64,000 nucleotides of DNA, from the IMG/VR virus record IMGVR_UViG_3300001580_000006, positions 96,001 to 160,000 of that record; one strand, written 5' to 3'. Positions 4,950 to 58,255 of this stretch are shown here, piece after piece; the first letter of the stretch is position 1; every line of letters starts with the position of its first letter. This DNA comes from a virus. Taxonomy: Duplodnaviria > Caudoviricetes. The notes under the pieces were generated by a model, which saw only the letters and a program-made list of their open reading frames with translations, was not told the DNA's origin and did no database searches. The translations under genes and the position numbers were made by a program.

Positions 4950-4978
4950 ATTATACCATAAATCTTGGTCAAATCCAA
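4950..4978 (-). promoter_or_regulatory. promoter for the basic peptide pair
   Basis: TTGGAT-17 nt-TATAAT with TG extended -10. Confidence 0.65.
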
Positions 4979-9356: not shown

Positions 9357-11438
9357 TTACATTAAAGATTTTTCCAGTTTGCTTAGGCTGTTGACTACTT
9401 GGATTTCCTTTGTTAGCTCGATATCTCCTAGCTTCCAAGTCATAGCTTCATCCATAGCATCGTAGACATACTTATACTCTTCTGGGTTGTTATTGCACAT
9501 AGATAGTATCTCATCATGGATATGTAGAACAGTCCGTACGTCTATATCTGCGTGCTTCCAGGCACTATCTAATCTAGCCAGTGTCTGCTTTAGAACATCA
9601 GCGGCAGTGCCTTGGATTATAAAGTTAACAGCCATTCTCAGTTTGTCAGGAGATGGATTTTGTCCAACCACAATTCTACGACCAAACTCAGTTTCAGAGT
9701 AACCTTTAAAAGAAATTAGTTCGTTAGTGTCTTGTAGCCATTTGGCCAACTCAGGATAAACTTTAAAGAACCCTTGTATAATAAATTCGCATTGCTTTAC
9801 AGTATAGGTTCTACCTGTGCTAGTTGTCAGGTTTAATGCTAGGGTTCTAGCACCGCCTTGGTAGACGACCAGGAATGAAGTGGTCTTGGCATCGTCACGC
9901 TGCTGCTTACGTTTGATCGCTAGTTGATAGGCCTCCATATTATGGCCCTTTTCTTGGTCAGACATCTCATCCCAGTGCTCTAAAAAGTCTGGTTTCATCT
10001 CTGCCAGAAACTGTTCATAAGGGACATCCCATATCAACGCAGCGGTATAAGCATGCATGTCCTTGCCTTCAATCATCAACCTCTTCATAACCTGGTCGTC
10101 ACTGAAGTACGCAGCTATTCTTAGCTCTATAGCATTCCAGTCAGCCTTTACAAAAACCTTGTTCGGATCTGCAATTAGCAATCCACGAATATCCAACTGT
10201 TTATTCTTTGGAAGATTCTGTAGGTTTGGTGAGGAAGCAAACCTCCCAGTTTTTAGAATCTGCCTAAATTGGGTGTGGAGTCTTCCATCTTTAATTATAC
10301 TAACTGCCTCAGACTCTTCAGCTGAAGTTTTAACTTTGGATTTGCCGGCTAGTAAGCTATCTATATAAGTGCTGCGTATTTTGTCGTGTGTTCTATACGA
10401 TAGAACGTGGTCTATCATCTTGCATGTACATACATGCAGTGGAACTTCTGAATCAAAATACCTGGCTTTGATTGAATTCAATACTTGCTTAGCGGTAGAG
10501 AACTCAGCGTCTGGATCATCAAAGTCTGGCTCAAACTCTTCTGGCACCGGAACAGCCGCAGTTGTAAACAGTCTAGATACTTGCTTATTCTTAGCAATAT
10601 CAACTGAGTAGCTTTTGGCATCTTCCGCGCTCCACCCTGATGCTATAAGGAGCTCCCTGGCTGTTTCCTTTGCGCCGGCTTTAGCTTTAGTAATCTCCTC
10701 CATACACACAGCTCTAAGTGGCGCAACCTTCTGTCTATCTATGAGTATACCAAATGCCTCCATTTCTGCTAGAATTCTTACTAATGGTAGTTCTATCTCT
10801 GTAAGAACCTTTCTAGTAGTCTGGGGCATTATTGTTTCCTGTTGCTTAAATAGGGCAAATGTGTTTGCAGCGTCAGGGCCACCATACCTAGCACCGTCCT
10901 CTACTGACACTGTGGCTATACTACTCTCTAGCTCATTATAGCGTATAACCTTACGACGCAAGAAATGCTCTGTCTGCCACTTAAGTGCAGCTGGAACCTT
11001 CCAGTCAAGCATTCTTGCAGCCAACATAGTATCAAAATGCAGTGGGAAGCCATTGGTAAAATCTATGCCGTTTGTCTTTAGCACCATGTAGTCGTACTTA
11101 GCATGATGCATAACCAATGGCTTCTGCTGTAAGATAGGCCCAATGACTTCTTTTACCTTAGCCCATGATAACTGTTCCTCAACAGGAAACCTATTGTTCT
11201 GAAACATGTTAACTTGGGCTGGATGCCTGTGAGCTACTGGGATGTACCAGGCCCGATCTCCAGATATTGCTAATGGCAATGATACTATTTTAGCAATGGT
11301 GGGGTCAAGCGCAGTAGTTTCGGTATCTACAGCTATAACAGGCGCGGCCATAAGAGCCTGAGCTACCTGGTTAAGGTGATCCTCAGTCATTACAACCTCG
11401 ACCGTTATCTTTCCGGACAGGTCAAGGACTTCGTTCAT
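9357..11438 (-). CDS. polA: Family A DNA polymerase with 3'-5' exonuclease domain
   Basis: Exonuclease motifs DTET, HHAKYD, DTM; TGRFASSPNLQN; motif A DWNAIELR, motif B RDDAKTTSF..VY, motif C HIHDE. Confidence 0.93.
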   Translation of the reverse strand: MNEVLDLSGKITVEVVMTEDHLNQVAQALMAAPVIAVDTETTALDPTIAKIVSLPLAISGDRAWYIPVAHRHPAQVNMFQNNRFPVEEQLSWAKVKEVIGPILQQKPLVMHHAKYDYMVLKTNGIDFTNGFPLHFDTMLAARMLDWKVPAALKWQTEHFLRRKVIRYNELESSIATVSVEDGARYGGPDAANTFALFKQQETIMPQTTRKVLTEIELPLVRILAEMEAFGILIDRQKVAPLRAVCMEEITKAKAGAKETARELLIASGWSAEDAKSYSVDIAKNKQVSRLFTTAAVPVPEEFEPDFDDPDAEFSTAKQVLNSIKARYFDSEVPLHVCTCKMIDHVLSYRTHDKIRSTYIDSLLAGKSKVKTSAEESEAVSIIKDGRLHTQFRQILKTGRFASSPNLQNLPKNKQLDIRGLLIADPNKVFVKADWNAIELRIAAYFSDDQVMKRLMIEGKDMHAYTAALIWDVPYEQFLAEMKPDFLEHWDEMSDQEKGHNMEAYQLAIKRKQQRDDAKTTSFLVVYQGGARTLALNLTTSTGRTYTVKQCEFIIQGFFKVYPELAKWLQDTNELISFKGYSETEFGRRIVVGQNPSPDKLRMAVNFIIQGTAADVLKQTLARLDSAWKHADIDVRTVLHIHDEILSMCNNNPEEYKYVYDAMDEAMTWKLGDIELTKEIQVVNSLSKLEKSLM

Positions 11439-11439
11439 G

Positions 11440-11934
11440 TTAGGTAGTTGGTGAGATTTTTGCGTCTACGGAGCGCTGAATAACAACGTCGCGGACTAGG
11501 TTTGAGATAGCCGAAAGATAGGAGATCCACTCGGCCCAGAAGTTTTTGTATACATCGCACAAAGCTTTGTCAGCTTTGCTGGAATTATACTTCTGCGTAG
11601 CTCCAACAGCGGCAGCTTCAGCCATGGCTTTCTGTTTGCCATCTGAGAGCTTCTTAGTCTCTTCATTGCCGAGCAGTTTAACCATCTCCTGCTGAGCTAT
11701 AATGTCAGCTTCGTTGTCGGAGAGGATAGCAGCCCAGTTAGAGCTATCAGATTTCTTGGACCAGTGGTTGTGGTTAAGCGTAGCTACGCCAAACCGGAAG
11801 CTGATTAACTGCGACAGCGTGTTTATGTCACAGGTAGCCAGCAGGTTATCAACGTTTGCCGACATAGCTTTTCCAAGCTCATCAGCGGTAGAATCTACCT
11901 CTTCACGAGTGTAGACTTTCATATCTAGTTCCAT
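11440..11934 (-). CDS. hypothetical helical protein
   Basis: GGAGG RBS; first gene after a promoter. Confidence 0.6.
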   Translation of the reverse strand: MELDMKVYTREEVDSTADELGKAMSANVDNLLATCDINTLSQLISFRFGVATLNHNHWSKKSDSSNWAAILSDNEADIIAQQEMVKLLGNEETKKLSDGKQKAMAEAAAVGATQKYNSSKADKALCDVYKNFWAEWISYLSAISNLVRDVVIQRSVDAKISPTT

Positions 11935-11956
11935 ACTTCCTCCGTTTGGGGTTATT

Positions 11957-11985
11957 ATTATACCACATTAATTTGCAAAAAGCAA
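11957..11985 (-). promoter_or_regulatory. promoter for the polA/thyX/nrdD operon
   Basis: TTGCTT-17 nt-TATAAT with TG extended -10. Confidence 0.7.
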
Positions 11986-12021
11986 GTGCTTTACAGACTA
12001 TATTTTAGTGCATAGTGTAAG

Positions 12022-14898
12022 CTATTGCTCTTCTGGCTCTTGCTTGCCTAGAAATCTTTTGGCTAAGCTAGACGCCAGTAAACTGGCCTGTTCATCGGCT
12101 GACTCCGGCGGAATGCCATCTAATACTGCATCTCCGGCTTCTGCCTTTGCCACAACATCCTGTGCTAATAAGGCATCATAGGAGTTGTCTAGTACCATTA
12201 CATAAACATTTACAGAACCCTTCTGCCCAAACCTATGGCACCTATCCTCAGCTTGGCGCATTATAAATGGACTGTAGTGCTGCTCTACAAATACTACCGT
12301 TGATGCAGATTGTAAGTTAATAGTATCTCCAGCAGCTTCGATAGAGCCTATGAATATTCTACGATCAGGGTTGTTATTAAACTCGTCTATGATATCAAAC
12401 CGCCTGGTCTGATCATTCATTCTTCCATCTATAAGCAAAGAGCCAGGAAACGCTGAGGTTAAAATATCCGATACGTCATGGTGTCTAGTAAACACAACTA
12501 TCTTTCCCTTGTCGTCTTCCATCTCCTCCAACAAATCCTGTATGAACTCTACGGCAGCTGGAGCTTTCGCAACACCAACCTTCTTCATAAGACTAAATAT
12601 CATTCCCTGAACTTCTGGTTTTCTCATACAGGAAATTATTTGGGCGATAGTAGGAGCTCTATTGCCGAGCTCTCTCCCTAGTTCTTTGAATAGAGACTTC
12701 TCAGCTTTACGCACCTCAACTCGGTTCTTTGCATCAGTCTCTAACTCAATGATGGTCCGCACTTTTGGTGGGAGGTCTTTAAGAACTGCCGACTTTAGTC
12801 TACGCATCATACAACTTTCAGACAGCTTCTGGTGAAGATCGTCCATATTTATTGGAGCTGACTTTTTATAATCCTGATTGCCAGAGTGTGTTACAGGGTC
12901 ATACCCAAAGTATCTACGCAAGAACCAAGCCTTATCTGGGAATGTTAGTGGGTCAATGAGATGGATGATCTTCCACAGGTCAAGCACCTTATTGTATATT
13001 GGAGTTCCGGTTGCACAGATTACAGCTTGAACCTTCCTGCAAATAGTCATAGCTGCCTGTGTTCGCTGCGCTTTGTAGTTTTTGCAGTTGGAGACTAAAA
13101 CCCCGTTGGCGAAATAGTTATTGTTATTAGCAACTTCTATGTTGTATACAGGTATTAGATCCTGCGTTTGGCTATTTCCTGTAGAACTCGTGGTAGGTCC
13201 GCTATAACCTCCTCGTTCCAGAACCTCAGCACTAACCACCCGAGAGCACGCAAGACCTCTGTTTTCCGATGGTCGAGGAACCGCCAAAGTTTCAGTTTGT
13301 GTGTTTTGCCGTCGATCTCTATTGCTATCTTCCGTATTGGATCTGCTATATCCACTTTGTAGCAATGAGGTAAACTTTTGAATTGTTCGGCAACAGGATG
13401 CGTTAATATAATATATTCTGTTGGAAGACCTAGTGCATCCGCAACTAATTTCTGCTGAGTAGTTAGTGTTCCATTGCCACCCCGTGCCAAGAAGGTTCTG
13501 CCAATTAACTTTTGCCGCATCTTTTCCCTGGCAACGGGGTCTGCCATTGGATTGCGCTCCCTCATCCTCTGCGCAGCATCCGGGCGCCTTCGTCCTACAT
13601 TTGATGCCTGTGCTGTCTTTATTACAACACGACAGATTTCTTTTCTGCCCGGCTGTGCCATTCTCCATTTTGCGGCACAGGTGTTGCCGCAAAAGCGCAA
13701 TCTGTTCTTTGCACCATAATGATTTTTTGGTATAAAGGTCCTGCCACAATACTCGCAGATCTGTGGCTTTATTGGCTTCTTTAGCGCCTTGCTTATCGCG
13801 CTTCTTACATCGATTCGCGCATTTACCGCTATAGCGGCACAGCTTCGGGAGCAGTATACCGTTGTCGTCCTGCCGCGTTTTCTGGTTTTGAACTTCTTGT
13901 GGCAATACCGACAAGACATCTCTGTTAGACAAGCTTGCCGCCTCTTTGTAGCCCGAAGCAGTCCAGATCTTGTGGTTGCCAGTGCAGATAAATTCTCCAT
14001 GTTCATGGGTTATCCTCATCAATGTGTTAGTATAATTATAGCACATTTCATAGGAAAATCCAATATGCCTCTTAAATCTTTCTGCAATGGGCTGCCACTC
14101 TAACTGTCCAGTTTGTTTGTTATGGGACAGAGCCAGGTGCCCAACGCCGTGTTCAACCACGTCGCCTATTGACTGTGGTCCTTCATCAGTTATTATAGTA
14201 GCATTATATGGAAAGCAAAAGTGTGCTTCATCTAGTACAATTAACTGTGGGGCAAACTCTTTAATAACGTCTACGTACCTATTAAGTATCTCATAGTTAA
14301 TTATGAATACTATTCTTCCCCCTTGTTGAAGGTAGACGCGGCTTTGTTTCATCCAGTCTATACAGTCGTTCCCAGTGGCGAACCTTACGAGCTTTTCGCC
14401 CATAAGCCACTTGTTTGTCTCCCTTTCCCAATTCTTTTTTCCTATCGCTTTGCATACAACCACAACCTTTCTAATATCGGTTCTTAAGTTTAGCCAGGAC
14501 AGTATCTCGATTGTCTTTCCTGTGCCCATTTCGTCGGCTAATAGGATACGGCCATCATGTAACTGTGCAAACTCTACTGCAGCCCTCTGGTATGATCTTA
14601 CGATAAGCCCTTCTGGACACGGCACCTCTATATCAGATTCAGTGGCCCTAGATAGAGCCTTAGACTTGACCTTACGGTCCGCCAAAGTTATGGCTTCTGC
14701 TCTGATTGGTTCTATCTCCGGATCTAGAACTACACCTGGAGTGTCGCTGCCAAGTAGGCTAAGAAGTTGTTTGCGATTTAAGTACCAGCATTTATCTTCT
14801 GGCGACCAGGTAGCCTTAACGTCCTTTAAATAATCCTTCTCGTGATATGAAGTGATTGCGACGTATAAGTCTGCGCCAGGCTCTTTAAATATCTGCAC
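12022..14898 (-). CDS. SNF2/HARP-like SF2 helicase interrupted by an intein
   Basis: LADEMGTGKT, LDEAHF|CKN, ATGTP, QAEDRCHRFGQ. Confidence 0.9.
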   Translation of the reverse strand: MQIFKEPGADLYVAITSYHEKDYLKDVKATWSPEDKCWYLNRKQLLSLLGSDTPGVVLDPEIEPIRAEAITLADRKVKSKALSRATESDIEVPCPEGLIVRSYQRAAVEFAQLHDGRILLADEMGTGKTIEILSWLNLRTDIRKVVVVCKAIGKKNWERETNKWLMGEKLVRFATGNDCIDWMKQSRVYLQQGGRIVFIINYEILNRYVDVIKEFAPQLIVLDEAHFCFPYNATIITDEGPQSIGDVVEHGVGHLALSHNKQTGQLEWQPIAERFKRHIGFSYEMCYNYTNTLMRITHEHGEFICTGNHKIWTASGYKEAASLSNRDVLSVLPQEVQNQKTRQDDNGILLPKLCRYSGKCANRCKKRDKQGAKEANKATDLRVLWQDLYTKKSLWCKEQIALLRQHLCRKMENGTAGQKRNLSCCNKDSTGIKCRTKAPGCCAEDEGAQSNGRPRCQGKDAAKVNWQNLLGTGWQWNTNYSAEISCGCTRSSNRIYYINASCCRTIQKFTSLLQSGYSRSNTEDSNRDRRQNTQTETLAVPRPSENRGLACSRVVSAEVLERGGYSGPTTSSTGNSQTQDLIPVYNIEVANNNNYFANGVLVSNCKNYKAQRTQAAMTICRKVQAVICATGTPIYNKVLDLWKIIHLIDPLTFPDKAWFLRRYFGYDPVTHSGNQDYKKSAPINMDDLHQKLSESCMMRRLKSAVLKDLPPKVRTIIELETDAKNRVEVRKAEKSLFKELGRELGNRAPTIAQIISCMRKPEVQGMIFSLMKKVGVAKAPAAVEFIQDLLEEMEDDKGKIVVFTRHHDVSDILTSAFPGSLLIDGRMNDQTRRFDIIDEFNNNPDRRIFIGSIEAAGDTINLQSASTVVFVEQHYSPFIMRQAEDRCHRFGQKGSVNVYVMVLDNSYDALLAQDVVAKAEAGDAVLDGIPPESADEQASLLASSLAKRFLGKQEPEEQ
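13155..14006 (-). CDS. DUF559/Vsr-like endonuclease with zinc-finger repeats, nested out of frame inside the intein
   Basis: CRYC..YCSRSC and CEYC..FCGNTC repeats, RMRERNPM, YKVDIA...IEIDGKTH...D..K...L...GWLVLRFWN; own GAGGA RBS. Confidence 0.85.
   Translation of the reverse strand: MNMENLSALATTRSGLLRATKRRQACLTEMSCRYCHKKFKTRKRGRTTTVYCSRSCAAIAVNARIDVRSAISKALKKPIKPQICEYCGRTFIPKNHYGAKNRLRFCGNTCAAKWRMAQPGRKEICRVVIKTAQASNVGRRRPDAAQRMRERNPMADPVAREKMRQKLIGRTFLARGGNGTLTTQQKLVADALGLPTEYIILTHPVAEQFKSLPHCYKVDIADPIRKIAIEIDGKTHKLKLWRFLDHRKTEVLRALGWLVLRFWNEEVIADLPRVLQEIAKRRI
14035..14063 (-). promoter_or_regulatory. internal promoter within the intein, upstream of the nested endonuclease
   Basis: TTGGAT-17 nt-TATAAT with TG extension, 29 nt upstream of the ATG at 14006. 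Confidence 0.7.
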
Positions 14899-15071
14899 TA
14901 CTTACCTTTTAACCTCTCGTTTAGGTATTCTCCCTTAGCTTTCGTTCCGAGCTTTAGGATAGCATAAACGCACCCACAGTCTTCGCACTGATAAATCTTT
15001 TTGTCTGCGTTTACGATTGTTTGAAATAAGCATAGCCCACATTGTGGACATGCTCTAAATTCATCACCCAT
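14898..15071 (-). CDS. small zinc-ribbon protein (57 aa, not in the ORF track)
   Basis: MGDEFRACPQCG...YQCEDCG; fills the intergenic gap exactly. Confidence 0.55.
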   Translation of the reverse strand: MGDEFRACPQCGLCLFQTIVNADKKIYQCEDCGCVYAILKLGTKAKGEYLNERLKGK

Positions 15072-15474
15072 ATATTTCTTTGCTGAACAACGCTAATTGT
15101 ATTATAGAGTCAGCGGCAGGTGAGTCTATATCACCAACGTCAACTAGCCCATACTTTGATGCGTACAGCCTAAGCCCAGCTTTTAAGCTGTCTAGGGTTA
15201 GGGTAAACCTAGCTGCATCTTTTTTCCACTCTCCATCCTCATCTTCTAGTAGAACAGAGAGCCCCCTACTAATGGCCTGACTAGTATACTCCAGATCTTT
15301 TGGCAACTTATCACATTTTACTATGGTTGCACGCTTGCACCAGTAGTTTACTCCACCCTCTAAAGCAGTGCACACTATGTCGTCAATGTCTTCTTGTGTC
15401 AGTTCAATCTCGGTTTGGATTTTTATCGGCTCCATTATCGATCTCCTGTAGTTGCTCTTTTGTAATTCTATCAA
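15064..15474 (-). CDS. hypothetical phage protein
   Basis: DIVCTALEGG.NYW...DIDS..AD.IIQ.ALF...YG; probable start at MEPIK. Confidence 0.6.
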   Translation of the reverse strand: MIELQKSNYRRSIMEPIKIQTEIELTQEDIDDIVCTALEGGVNYWCKRATIVKCDKLPKDLEYTSQAISRGLSVLLEDEDGEWKKDAARFTLTLDSLKAGLRLYASKYGLVDVGDIDSPAADSIIQLALFSKEIYG

Positions 15475-15628
15475 TTACCCGACGTCTTTTCTTAAAGCGG
15501 TTTGACTGACACCACGGACAACTGCCGTGTGCCCTACAGCTTCCAAAGAATCGTCGCCCGTCTTTGTATTGCTTTCGCCAATCTTTTCTATGCGGATAGT
15601 TCTTATCGAATGACATGTTCTTTACCAA
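15404..15628 (-). CDS. small basic Cys/His phage protein
   Basis: SCRAHGSCPWC. Confidence 0.55.
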   Translation of the reverse strand: MVKNMSFDKNYPHRKDWRKQYKDGRRFFGSCRAHGSCPWCQSNRFKKRRRVIDRITKEQLQEIDNGADKNPNRD

Positions 15629-15636
15629 AAGAATTA

Positions 15637-15664
15637 GCCCTGGCTACACTTCTATAGCCAGGGC
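15637..15664 (-). terminator. putative terminator hairpin
   Basis: GCCCTGGCTA...TAGCCAGGGC inverted repeat followed by a T-rich tract on the minus strand. Confidence 0.5.
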
Positions 15665-15684
15665 GTCACCATATAGGTTACTAG

Positions 15685-16986
15685 TTACGTTTTGCGCATC
15701 CTACGAGCTGGAACTTCATCCATTGGATCATAGTACTTGGTAAGAATGCCATTCTTATCCGGGTTAAGAGAAACTCGATCTTCTAGATGAATGTTAGTCT
15801 CTCTGTGAATACCATGATCATTGTCAAACAGGAATATCTTTTGCGATGGCGGAGAAGCCACCTGCATCTTGTTTATAGACAACTCTGTTCCACCAACCAT
15901 TGAGCCATTGGTAACAATATAGTTGGCATCAATAGAGGCTGGCGTATGAATATGGCCAACCAGTAATATGTCTATTACTCTGTTGAACAACCGTGGTAGT
16001 TTTCTGGCCATTCTGTCTAAACCGTAGAATGGTATACCATAGGAACTGGAGCCTGAGTTGTGCCCATGCTGTAGACAGAAAGTGAATTTCCCGTGCTGCA
16101 CTAACATCATTGGGCTCTCTGCAACATAGACATTCACATTTTTCTGATTACGAAGTAGGAGCTTTAATAGCCTATAGAACATATAGTCTAGGTTGGTACG
16201 ATAGTGCAGCTGAGATTTCTTACCACCTATAACACCGTGGTTTCCACTGACTCCATAAATATCAATTTGTGGAATCTCTTTGGCCAATCGTAGAATAGAC
16301 TCTGTTTCTTTCATAACGCAGTCTAACACTTGGTCAAAAGCTCCACGGTCAATATAGTTGTTCTGCCCCGGGTAAACCAACTCACCAGTTTGCTGATCCC
16401 CCAACCAGTTAAGCACAAGCTTATTTATACCAAGGTGGCGGTCCTCATGATAAAACTGTATAGTCGTATCAGTGAGCATGTCCAGCCTACTAGCATACAT
16501 ATTAAAGTCATACTCAGCCAATCCTTGCACCCAGGCCTTATCAACCACCTCGCCAACGTGTGCATCTGACCGTAAGCCGTGCATAGTCTGCTCTTTCCTA
16601 ACCTTATGTGGTTTAGGGGGCCTAACTATTGGTATATGAATTCTGTTGACGTTGGCTTCAACAGCTTCATAAACCAATCTAGCAAACTGTTTTGATTTCT
16701 CGATCTGCTCGCGAAGACTCTCATTTTCTCTAGCTAAAATAGCAGGAGATACTGGACCATCTGTGCCATAGGCTTTGTATTTTCTAAACTCCTTAGCTTC
16801 TTCGCTACGCTTCTTCTTCCACTGGTTAACCACACCAAGTCTGCGAGCTTTATGATCACAAGCTGACGTAGATAAGCCCATTAGCTTCATAATTGCAGAT
16901 GCTGTAGTCTCTGGGTCTGCTAGTAGCTTCTTAAACTGCTCTACCGACTCCGGTGTCCACTCATTGTTTTTGGTTTCCATAATCAC
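15685..16986 (-). CDS. Calcineurin-like metallophosphoesterase with N-terminal HTH-like region
   Basis: SDAH.GE, LGD, GNHG, HGH, GHIH. Confidence 0.8.
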   Translation of the reverse strand: MIMETKNNEWTPESVEQFKKLLADPETTASAIMKLMGLSTSACDHKARRLGVVNQWKKKRSEEAKEFRKYKAYGTDGPVSPAILARENESLREQIEKSKQFARLVYEAVEANVNRIHIPIVRPPKPHKVRKEQTMHGLRSDAHVGEVVDKAWVQGLAEYDFNMYASRLDMLTDTTIQFYHEDRHLGINKLVLNWLGDQQTGELVYPGQNNYIDRGAFDQVLDCVMKETESILRLAKEIPQIDIYGVSGNHGVIGGKKSQLHYRTNLDYMFYRLLKLLLRNQKNVNVYVAESPMMLVQHGKFTFCLQHGHNSGSSSYGIPFYGLDRMARKLPRLFNRVIDILLVGHIHTPASIDANYIVTNGSMVGGTELSINKMQVASPPSQKIFLFDNDHGIHRETNIHLEDRVSLNPDKNGILTKYYDPMDEVPARRMRKT

Positions 16987-51472: not shown

Positions 51473-51547
51473 ATGAAATCGTTTTGGTTTTTGCTAACTA
51501 ATATGTTATAATATAAGTAGTTATAGTAACTTTAAAGGAGTATACTT

Positions 51548-58226: not shown

Positions 58227-58255
58227 ATTATATCACAAAATTGTTTAAAAGTCAA
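58227..58255 (-). promoter_or_regulatory. promoter upstream of the tRNA/Y chimeras, nadD and RNA ligase
   Basis: TTGACT-17 nt-TATAAT with TG extension. Confidence 0.8.

Follow-up and report, generated by a model that had tools for sequence, protein, structure and literature searches.

A stretch of viral DNA, positions 96,001 to 160,000 of the IMG/VR virus record IMGVR_UViG_3300001580_000006 (64,000 nucleotides [nt]; here, the window), contains an SNF2-family helicase gene with an intein, and a second gene, shifted by one base, lies within the sequence that encodes the intein; this second gene encodes a putative EDxHD/Vsr-like (DUF559) homing endonuclease. Inteins are usually described with the homing endonuclease as an in-frame domain. 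Our analysis shows that the overprinting of a nuclease gene on the intein is the standard condition in a large family of phage inteins, an arrangement of a kind recently described for other inteins, and that what is new in the window itself is a conserved, putative internal promoter of the phage's own promoter class. Very probably, the self-splicing intein and the overprinted homing endonuclease constitute one mobile unit of two overlapping genes. The source record is a 223-kb virus record, about 94% complete, and thus represents a jumbo phage.

Two open frames in one intein coding sequence

The helicase precursor is encoded by one uninterrupted open reading frame (ORF) of 958 amino acids (12022 to 14898) on the minus strand, on which all features of this locus lie. 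Its Pfam matches are SNF2-rel_dom (E = 1.8e-29), Helicase_C (E = 3.2e-10), and, weakly, Intein_splicing. Because intein-less SNF2 homologs show an uninterrupted junction, DEAHY[IV]KNxKAxRT, where the window reads DEAHF/intein/CKNYKAQRT, the intein was fixed at C228 to N604 of the precursor (13087 to 14217; 377 amino acids, from Cys1 to Ser-Asn377, followed by a +1 Cys). The N-extein (residues 1 to 227; 14218 to 14898) ends in helicase motif II (...VLDEAHF), and the C-extein (12022 to 13086), starting with CKNYKAQRT, supplies the rest of motif II and the helicase C-terminal domain. The nested ORF (13155 to 14006; 283 amino acids) starts 892 nt from the helicase start (892 mod 3 = 1) and is therefore in the +1 frame, so that 852 nt are open in both the helicase and the nuclease frames. 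Intein_splicing is the sole Pfam match of the 377-residue host-frame intein, and neither LAGLIDADG nor HNH was found there by Pfam. All coordinates given in an initial annotation of the window hold, as does its 852-nt overlap; its intein boundaries are borne out by the intein-less homologs, and its view that the intein middle has no recognizable homing endonuclease motif agrees with the Pfam result.

The host frame is kept free of stops by selection, as the initial annotation had supposed, and not by chance. When the synonymous codons of the nested ORF were shuffled 20,000 times, with the nuclease protein and codon usage kept, the overlap acquired a mean of 12.8 helicase-frame stops, and not one shuffle reached the zero that is observed; the third frame, an internal control, contains 25 stops against 24.4 expected. 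Shuffles likewise fail to leave the host frame open in six further loci. A host-frame stop arises only where a nuclease codon of the form NNT is followed by a codon starting with AA, AG, or GA, and every amino acid encoded by an NNT codon has a synonym that does not end in T; thus, the host frame can be kept open by synonymous choice alone, leaving the nuclease protein unaffected. The window has 77 nuclease codons starting with AA, AG, or GA, none of which is preceded by NNT, though 20% of the codons end in T. Over 80 distinct nested ORFs, none of 6,758 such codons follows NNT, and the host frame has 0 stops versus about 1,034 expected, with 1,986 stops (1,825 expected) in the third frame. By comparison, the corresponding frame contains 18 to 33 stops in three non-nested relatives and 2 to 154 stops in 48 ordinary DUF559 genes.

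The arrangement recurs throughout the family. A profile scan of viral contigs returned 254 nuclease relatives, 80 of which were kept. In every one of these 80 viral loci, the nuclease reads +1 within an open frame that spans it and is 617 to 2,578 amino acids long, and the third and antisense frames are full of stops. The bacterial contigs and those of metagenome-assembled genomes (MAGs), scanned with an alignment of 11 closer sequences, contain 13 full-length relatives, 10 of which are nested likewise. A megablast search of the phage collection with the helicase gene gave no match, and a protein-level search was needed: tblastn located nuclease relatives within genes annotated as helicases in phages of Vibrio, Pseudomonas, and Corynebacterium. 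Four GenBank phage records were opened; in each, the match is +1 to an annotated coding sequence (CDS), and the nested nuclease ORF is unannotated. In-frame fusions of the nuclease to host proteins were not seen, the best 150 of 1,771 clusters of homologous proteins all being at most 434 amino acids long.

The nested nuclease and its start signals

The nested ORF is a real gene, and its product is predicted to be an EDxHD/Vsr-like homing endonuclease that would cleave DNA. It matches Pfam DUF559 over residues 216 to 280 (E = 6.5e-13; 49 bits versus a cut-off of 20.6). The EDxHD motif of the catalytic core (D219, E230, D232, H236, and D245; 13272 to 13352) is invariant in 33 homologs, and so are the eight cysteines of two zinc-ribbon-like CxxC...C...C modules (C32/35/52/56 and C84/87/106/110; 13677 to 13913). 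The AlphaFold2 model of the nuclease has a mean pLDDT (predicted local distance difference test score) of 88.8, and the scores of the Cys modules are mostly at least 90, with one 10-residue block at 71. In Foldseek the best match is the catalytic domain of I-Bth0305I (Protein Data Bank [PDB] 3r3p; probability 1.00, template modeling [TM] score 0.63 on the target, E = 3e-3), followed by a DUF559 protein (3hrl; phmmer E = 1.7e-6) and Vsr (1vsr). The two Cys modules and an RM..NNPM motif occupy the N-terminal part, where I-Bth0305I has NUMOD-type motifs; the Pfam scan of the nuclease reported no NUMOD match, and no NUMOD-specific search was made. Taken with the substitution pattern described below, these results uphold the coherent zinc-finger and DUF559 nuclease that had initially been read in this frame.

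Within the intein coding sequence, and in the order expected for expression of the nested gene, the sequence contains TTGGAT (14063 to 14058), a 17-nt spacer, TATAAT (14040 to 14035), the Shine-Dalgarno sequence GAGGA (14017 to 14013), and, 6 nt further, the ATG (14006). The promoter-like element as a whole reads TTGGAT-N14-TGC-TATAAT (14035 to 14063), its -10 being a perfect extended TGCTATAAT. The initial annotation had reported these as the nuclease's own promoter and ribosome-binding site; the sequence is as stated, the element exactly matches a promoter class of the phage, and its -35 is weak by generic sigma-70 standards. A generic sigma-70 scan did not list the site, since TTGGAT matches TTGACA at 3 of 6 positions, nor were promoter-like sites in excess over 12000 to 15700. 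The case for a promoter rests on a phage-specific composite motif and on conservation in the closest relative, a syntenic phage (L168) whose helicase is 51% identical.

The sequence TGNTATAAT occurs 13 times in the window versus 4.0 expected, and the composite TTGNNT-N14-TGNTATAAT occurs 7 times in the window versus 0.02 expected and 13 times in the 223-kb genome, in which a reversed control is found 0 times. The six further window copies (2755 to 2783, 4950 to 4978, 11957 to 11985, and 58227 to 58255 on the minus strand; 2856 to 2884 and 51484 to 51512 on the plus strand) all lie outside long same-strand ORFs, and most are shortly upstream of ORF starts, for example, 22 nt before the ATG at 11934; the intein copy is the only one within such an ORF. 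Members of this promoter class often have a T-rich run after the -35. The intein copy sits in a 9-codon insertion, IGFSYEMCY (intein residues 52 to 60; 14038 to 14064), which forms a low-confidence loop in the intein model. The columns of this insertion are occupied in 0 to 1 of 62 other aligned inteins; L168 does have it. The two phages are identical at TTGGAT, TGCTATAAT, GAGGATAAC, and the ATG; the 14-nt spacer differs at 6 positions, and the intein around the start signals is 61 to 64% identical.

Family-wide, an ATG is found a few codons before the first zinc module in nearly every locus, and a Shine-Dalgarno core of at least 5 nt precedes a candidate ATG in 24 of 70 loci versus 9.4% expected (P ~ 1e-8). 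The first ~25 residues of the nuclease are unconserved and have low pLDDT; their codons overlie intein block B, which agrees with the initial observation that the nuclease start overlaps this block. Because of the promoter class, the signals conserved with L168, and the Shine-Dalgarno enrichment, the best reading is that the nuclease would be transcribed and translated independently of the helicase, and the independent expression proposed in the initial annotation thus looks right. The main competitor is synthesis of the nuclease as a fusion, through programmed ribosomal frameshifting from the helicase/intein frame. Such a mechanism would suit a nuclease that is always on the same strand and always +1 to the host frame, but this fixed relation is explained by descent, because the C-terminal motif of the nuclease and an intein strand are co-encoded. 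The ATG near the first zinc module, the Shine-Dalgarno enrichment, and the internal promoter, ribosome-binding site, and ATG common to the window and L168 all argue against frameshifting, and an unconserved, poorly modeled stretch over block B is what would be expected of a free N terminus. We therefore regard frameshifting as improbable.

Selection on the two frames and the splicing domain

The ratio of nonsynonymous to synonymous substitution rates (dN/dS) was determined for each frame, a comparison that the initial annotation had suggested, using pairs from a clade of gapless 1,095-nt inteins. In the overlap, the nuclease-frame dN/dS is 0.12 to 0.22 and the host-frame dN/dS is 0.75 to 1.67, i.e., about 1, for related pairs, and the substitutions fall on nuclease codon position 3 (host position 1). 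Those in the N-terminal splicing part are mainly at host codon position 3, and the host-frame dN/dS is about 0.1 to 0.2. Likewise, between the window and L168, 31 of 58 differences in the intein N-part and 14 of 16 in the intein C-part are at host position 3, and 143 of 272 differences in the nuclease core are at host position 1. Over the first ~25 nuclease codons (the block B overlap) the host frame dominates. At the other end of the nested gene (13155 to 13245), the nuclease motif GWxVLRFWNEE shares nucleotides with a conserved intein beta-strand, RVxSxExLE (SRVVSAEVLE in the window), and in 5 of 6 related pairs this 45-nt double-coded zone has a lower substitution rate than the 300 nt before it, as double constraint predicts. 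To judge from these substitution patterns, purifying selection in the overlap acts on the nuclease frame only, and the splicing ends are constrained in the host frame, as would suit an intein that splices.

This pattern bears on the possibility that an endonuclease gene once invaded and that the nested ORF is merely what is left of it, decaying or silent, so that only the helicase/intein frame now matters. No close intein-free allele was found for this lineage, which would fit a relic, and Gosselin, Arsenault, and Gogarten predict that such ORFs decay once they are unable to spread (bioRxiv 10.1101/2025.01.02.630785). However, a low nuclease-frame dN/dS with substitutions gathered at nuclease third positions, invariant catalytic and zinc-ligand residues, an ORF that is intact in 80 of 80 loci, and start signals conserved with L168 are not those of a relic, and we consider it still less probable than frameshifting.

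The ends of the intein have the features of a splicing domain. The block A nucleophile is Cys1 (CFPYNAT...), and 76 of 81 family members likewise begin with Cys. Block B reads T79-G-N-H82 within CTGNHKI, H82 being near-invariant in a 63-sequence alignment. The C terminus (...VLVSN/C) has an invariant Asn377, which is followed at +1 by Cys in 67 loci and by Ser in 13. The initial annotation had singled out Ser-Asn, in place of His-Asn, as the intein end; Ser-Asn is indeed present, but it is not unusual in the family, in which the ending is HN in 47 loci, SN in 32, and GN in 1. With SN in 32 of 80 loci, Ser marks a clade and no defect peculiar to the window copy. An AlphaFold2 model built with the 63-sequence alignment has pLDDT of at least 90 only at residues 1 to 50, 66 to 110, 321 to 333, and 355 to 377. 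These residues fall in the N-terminal splicing part (residues 1 to 110; 13888 to 14217), which contains blocks A and B, and the C-terminal splicing part (residues 321 to 377; 13087 to 13257), which contains blocks F/G (...NYFANGVLVSN). A Foldseek search with this model gave 47 PDB matches at E values of 0.001 or less, with intein splicing domains at the top; the matches cover only about 110 intein columns, and all are Hint-type autoprocessing domains, mostly mini-intein splicing domains (including DnaX mini, NrdJ-1, Mtu RecA, and gp41-1). By the modeled fold, then, the intein ends form a Hint domain of a putative class-1-type intein.

Between the splicing parts lies a host-frame linker of 210 residues (intein residues 111 to 320; 13258 to 13887) with no Pfam domain and with pLDDT per 10-residue block that is mostly 45 to 58 and at most 70. 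It would be translated but is apparently unstructured, and apparently constrained only to lack stops. Some of its residues are conserved family-wide, for example, an Arg at intein position 300; because they overlie the nuclease catalytic E-x-D-G codons, they look like by-products of nuclease conservation and not like parts of a folded domain.

It might be asked whether the helicase is instead a functionally split ("fractured") gene, whose two pieces would be joined by trans-splicing while the open host frame has no role. The closest published arrangement with a Vsr-like enzyme is indeed a fractured gene with split inteins (PMC2677866), and the split inteins NrdJ-1 and gp41-1 are among the best fold matches. 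Yet the N-part is ended by no stop, and the absence of host-frame stops over the overlap in 90 loci, versus about 13 expected per locus, would be unexplained if read-through were irrelevant; we consider the chance of such a split very slight. The least credible explanation, with a probability close to nil, is the one that the initial annotation had raised against its own reading, namely, that two compensating sequencing or assembly frameshifts mask an ordinary in-frame endonuclease domain: it could appeal to a metagenomic virus record and to a nuclease on the same strand and one base out of step, but it is close to refuted by the same +1 relation in 80 of 80 viral loci, 10 MAG/genome loci, and independently sequenced cultured phages, by zero host-frame stops where simple errors would leave about 13, by the nuclease's own conserved ATG, ribosome-binding site, and promoter, and by the lack of in-frame fusions among the best 150 of the 1,771 clusters (all of 434 amino acids or fewer).

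A proposed mobile unit, its relatives, and its insertion sites

We propose the following course of events for a mobile unit composed of a self-splicing intein and an overprinted homing endonuclease. The intein in motif II (Walker B; DEAHF/CKN) would be translated within the helicase precursor and would then excise itself, its splicing ends folding as a Hint domain and its 210-residue middle serving as a stop-free linker. The DNA of this middle, read one base later, would act as a separate gene for an EDxHD/Vsr-like nuclease with two zinc modules, which would use its own phage-type promoter, Shine-Dalgarno site, and ATG, all of them within the DNA that encodes the intein. Where co-infecting relatives have a helicase allele without the intein, the nuclease presumably cleaves it, and repair then copies in the entire unit; the intein would spare the helicase any harm from the insertion. 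Use of the internal promoter in transcription, separate translation of the nuclease, splicing, and homing are thus all predicted from the sequence.

Four observations weigh against this proposal. (i) A near intein-free allele of this helicase was not found, the closest intein-less homologs being about 34% identical; for this reason, ongoing homing in this lineage stays inferred. (ii) When the identity of exteins was compared with that of inteins, horizontal transfer was not clearly indicated. The outcome was mixed: in one pair of loci (L028 and L036) the N-exteins are 41% identical and the intein N-parts 89% identical, and other pairs are without such contrast. (iii) The residue before the terminal Asn of the window intein is Ser, not His, which is common though not universal at this position in inteins. 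(iv) The E value and TM score of the match between the nuclease model and 3r3p are modest, although the probability is 1.00.

Out-of-frame endonucleases in inteins have precedents. One was described in the Synechocystis dnaX intein (Gorbalenya 1998, as cited in later work). In actinobacteriophage inteins, Gosselin et al. described antisense LAGLIDADG, antisense Vsr-like, and frame-3 endonuclease VII-like genes in hosts encoding DNA polymerase, minor capsid, terminase, and thymidylate synthase; they called such layouts rare and proposed as their origin a mini-intein invaded by a free-standing endonuclease gene (bioRxiv 10.1101/2025.01.02.630785). The present family is similar in having a contiguous intein and, between the splicing blocks, a separate endonuclease ORF that is off the intein frame, and the Vsr-like/EDxHD type is among theirs. 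However, their Vsr-like gene is antisense and the one that they describe on the same strand is endonuclease VII-like and in frame 3, whereas here a Vsr-like gene is on the same strand and +1, the sites are the Walker B motifs of SNF2/DEAD helicases and clamp loaders, and the layout is the rule (80 of 80). The cyanobacterial dnaX intein (Phillips, DeSimone, and Gogarten, bioRxiv 10.64898/2026.09.14.751524) likewise has an overlapping-frame endonuclease with low dN/dS and raised host-frame values over the overlap, but the enzyme is of the LAGLIDADG type, the host gene is on a bacterial chromosome, the case is described as a rarity, and the sections consulted report no internal promoter.

Elsewhere, Vsr-like endonucleases have been found in fractured genes with split inteins, in group I introns, and as free-standing genes (PMC2677866, PMC3239194). 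The fractured genes of Dassa et al. (2009; PMC2677866) share with the present family the nuclease family, its place in the intein, and a predominance of phage DNA metabolism genes as hosts; furthermore, the endonuclease 3' end overlaps the C-terminal intein coding sequence, and gene-control elements accompany the endonuclease. There, however, the host gene is in two ORFs and trans-splicing is required. Here the host frame is open through the whole endonuclease gene, and the intein is therefore contiguous: in place of two flanking host ORFs there is a single 958-amino-acid ORF, and the same is true of 90 related loci. The hosts of Dassa et al. are gp41 helicase, IMPDH, DnaE, NrdA, NrdJ, ligase, and terminase, and SNF2 is not mentioned among them (PMC2677866). 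I-Bth0305I (Taylor et al. 2011; PMC3239194; PDB 3r3p), the prototype EDxHD homing endonuclease, is also a multidomain protein with N-terminal DNA-binding modules and a Vsr-like catalytic domain containing E-D-x-H-D, but it is encoded within a phage recA gene, in a group I intron, and its N-terminal motifs are of the NUMOD type, whereas the window protein has two four-cysteine modules and is overprinted on an intein. In the ShiLan insertion (Arsenault et al. 2025; PMC11855218), an endonuclease gene is similarly overprinted on the stop-free host frame of a phage methylase; that insertion has no splicing domains, stays as a loop in the host protein, and encodes an HNH-type nuclease. A Vsr-like gene on the same strand and +1 within a contiguous helicase intein was not reported in the literature searched, nor was such an overprint as a family-wide rule or a promoter located in an intein loop.

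These comparisons have several implications. Out-of-frame cases published since 2025 have been called rare, and here a same-strand +1 Vsr-like endonuclease is the rule (254 viral relatives; 1,771 protein clusters), with the nested gene missing from the annotation of the four GenBank phage records checked. The family ties contiguous inteins to fractured-gene and split-intein layouts, which bears on the acquisition of endonucleases by inteins. It also offers a clean example from nature of gene overlap where selection on one frame asks only that it contain no stops, something achievable by synonymous choices in the other. A promoter in an intein loop would mean that regulatory DNA can be overprinted on a protein that must fold and splice, and the long tolerated linker is a permissive insertion site that could help intein engineering.

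The site of the unit in nearly every locus is the Asp-Glu of Walker B/motif II in SNF2 helicases, ResIII/DEAD helicases, or DnaX-like clamp loaders. Three neighboring insertion points are used by 71 distinct loci: DE/C (58 loci), DExH/ (6 loci), and DExHx/C (7 loci), the last by the window and L168. On a quick maximum-likelihood tree of the nuclease, labeled by insertion site only, this label needs 8 changes (minimum 2; shuffled mean 12.6), and the placement of the window is weakly supported. One locus (L063:3191-4210) groups with two others (L067:3179-4342 and L081:3071-4345) with 100% SH-aLRT support on this tree and appears to have slid its insertion point by two codons. The three are about 77 to 81% identical in nucleotide sequence over the aligned part, and they read LLDEAH/C...N/CLTK (L063) and LLDE/C...N/CHSITK (L067 and L081) in the same clamp-loader-like motif.

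It is conceivable, though we give the idea less than even weight, that the +1 overprint is the ancestral, locked-in design of the whole family and no passing intermediate; that the unit moved as one piece between the Walker B sites of at least three ATPase families and between neighboring codons; and that this lineage gained a copy of a phage promoter in an intein loop, which would uncouple the timing of the nuclease from that of the helicase. In such a design, because the same nucleotides encode both, neither the catalytic C-terminal nuclease motif nor the intein strand could be lost or shifted without harm to the other.

L168 looks like a related phage and not like a transferred cassette: L168:1-5670 and the window (9357 to 16986) share a gene order, with a metallophosphatase-like gene upstream and small ORFs and a family A DNA polymerase downstream. 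A Deinococcus locus was absent among the full-length nuclease relatives from genome/MAG contigs, and we claim no link to the Deinococcus radiodurans Snf2 intein, which has been spliced experimentally (Southworth and Perler 2002, as cited in PMC11219805).

The four GenBank records opened are MT104474 (L003, Pseudomonas phage MR14), MG324353 (L004, Corynebacterium phage phi673), and MG592563 and MG592463 (L005 and L006, Vibrio phages), in which the annotation gives just the spanning CDS, as a helicase or a "coil containing protein." In Vibrio phages CP-T1, 24, and Rostov M3, too, the search gave matches within features labeled "putative helicase." A single viral locus of the 80 (L038:3291-5319) has a broken layout: a deletion near the nuclease C terminus (LRFGI*) shifts both frames and puts the helicase in another frame just before intein blocks F/G. 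Either decay of this copy or faulty assembly could account for it. At L095:3495-4136, a nuclease relative stands free between a metallo-beta-lactamase-like gene and an intein-less DESHH helicase, the start of which it overlaps by 26 nt; it has 18 stops in the frame that is open in nested copies. Finally, two host ORFs with nested nucleases (L024:161-4189 and L057:1478-5083) have a LAGLIDADG_3 match further upstream, which suggests that each holds a second, canonical intein in the same gene.

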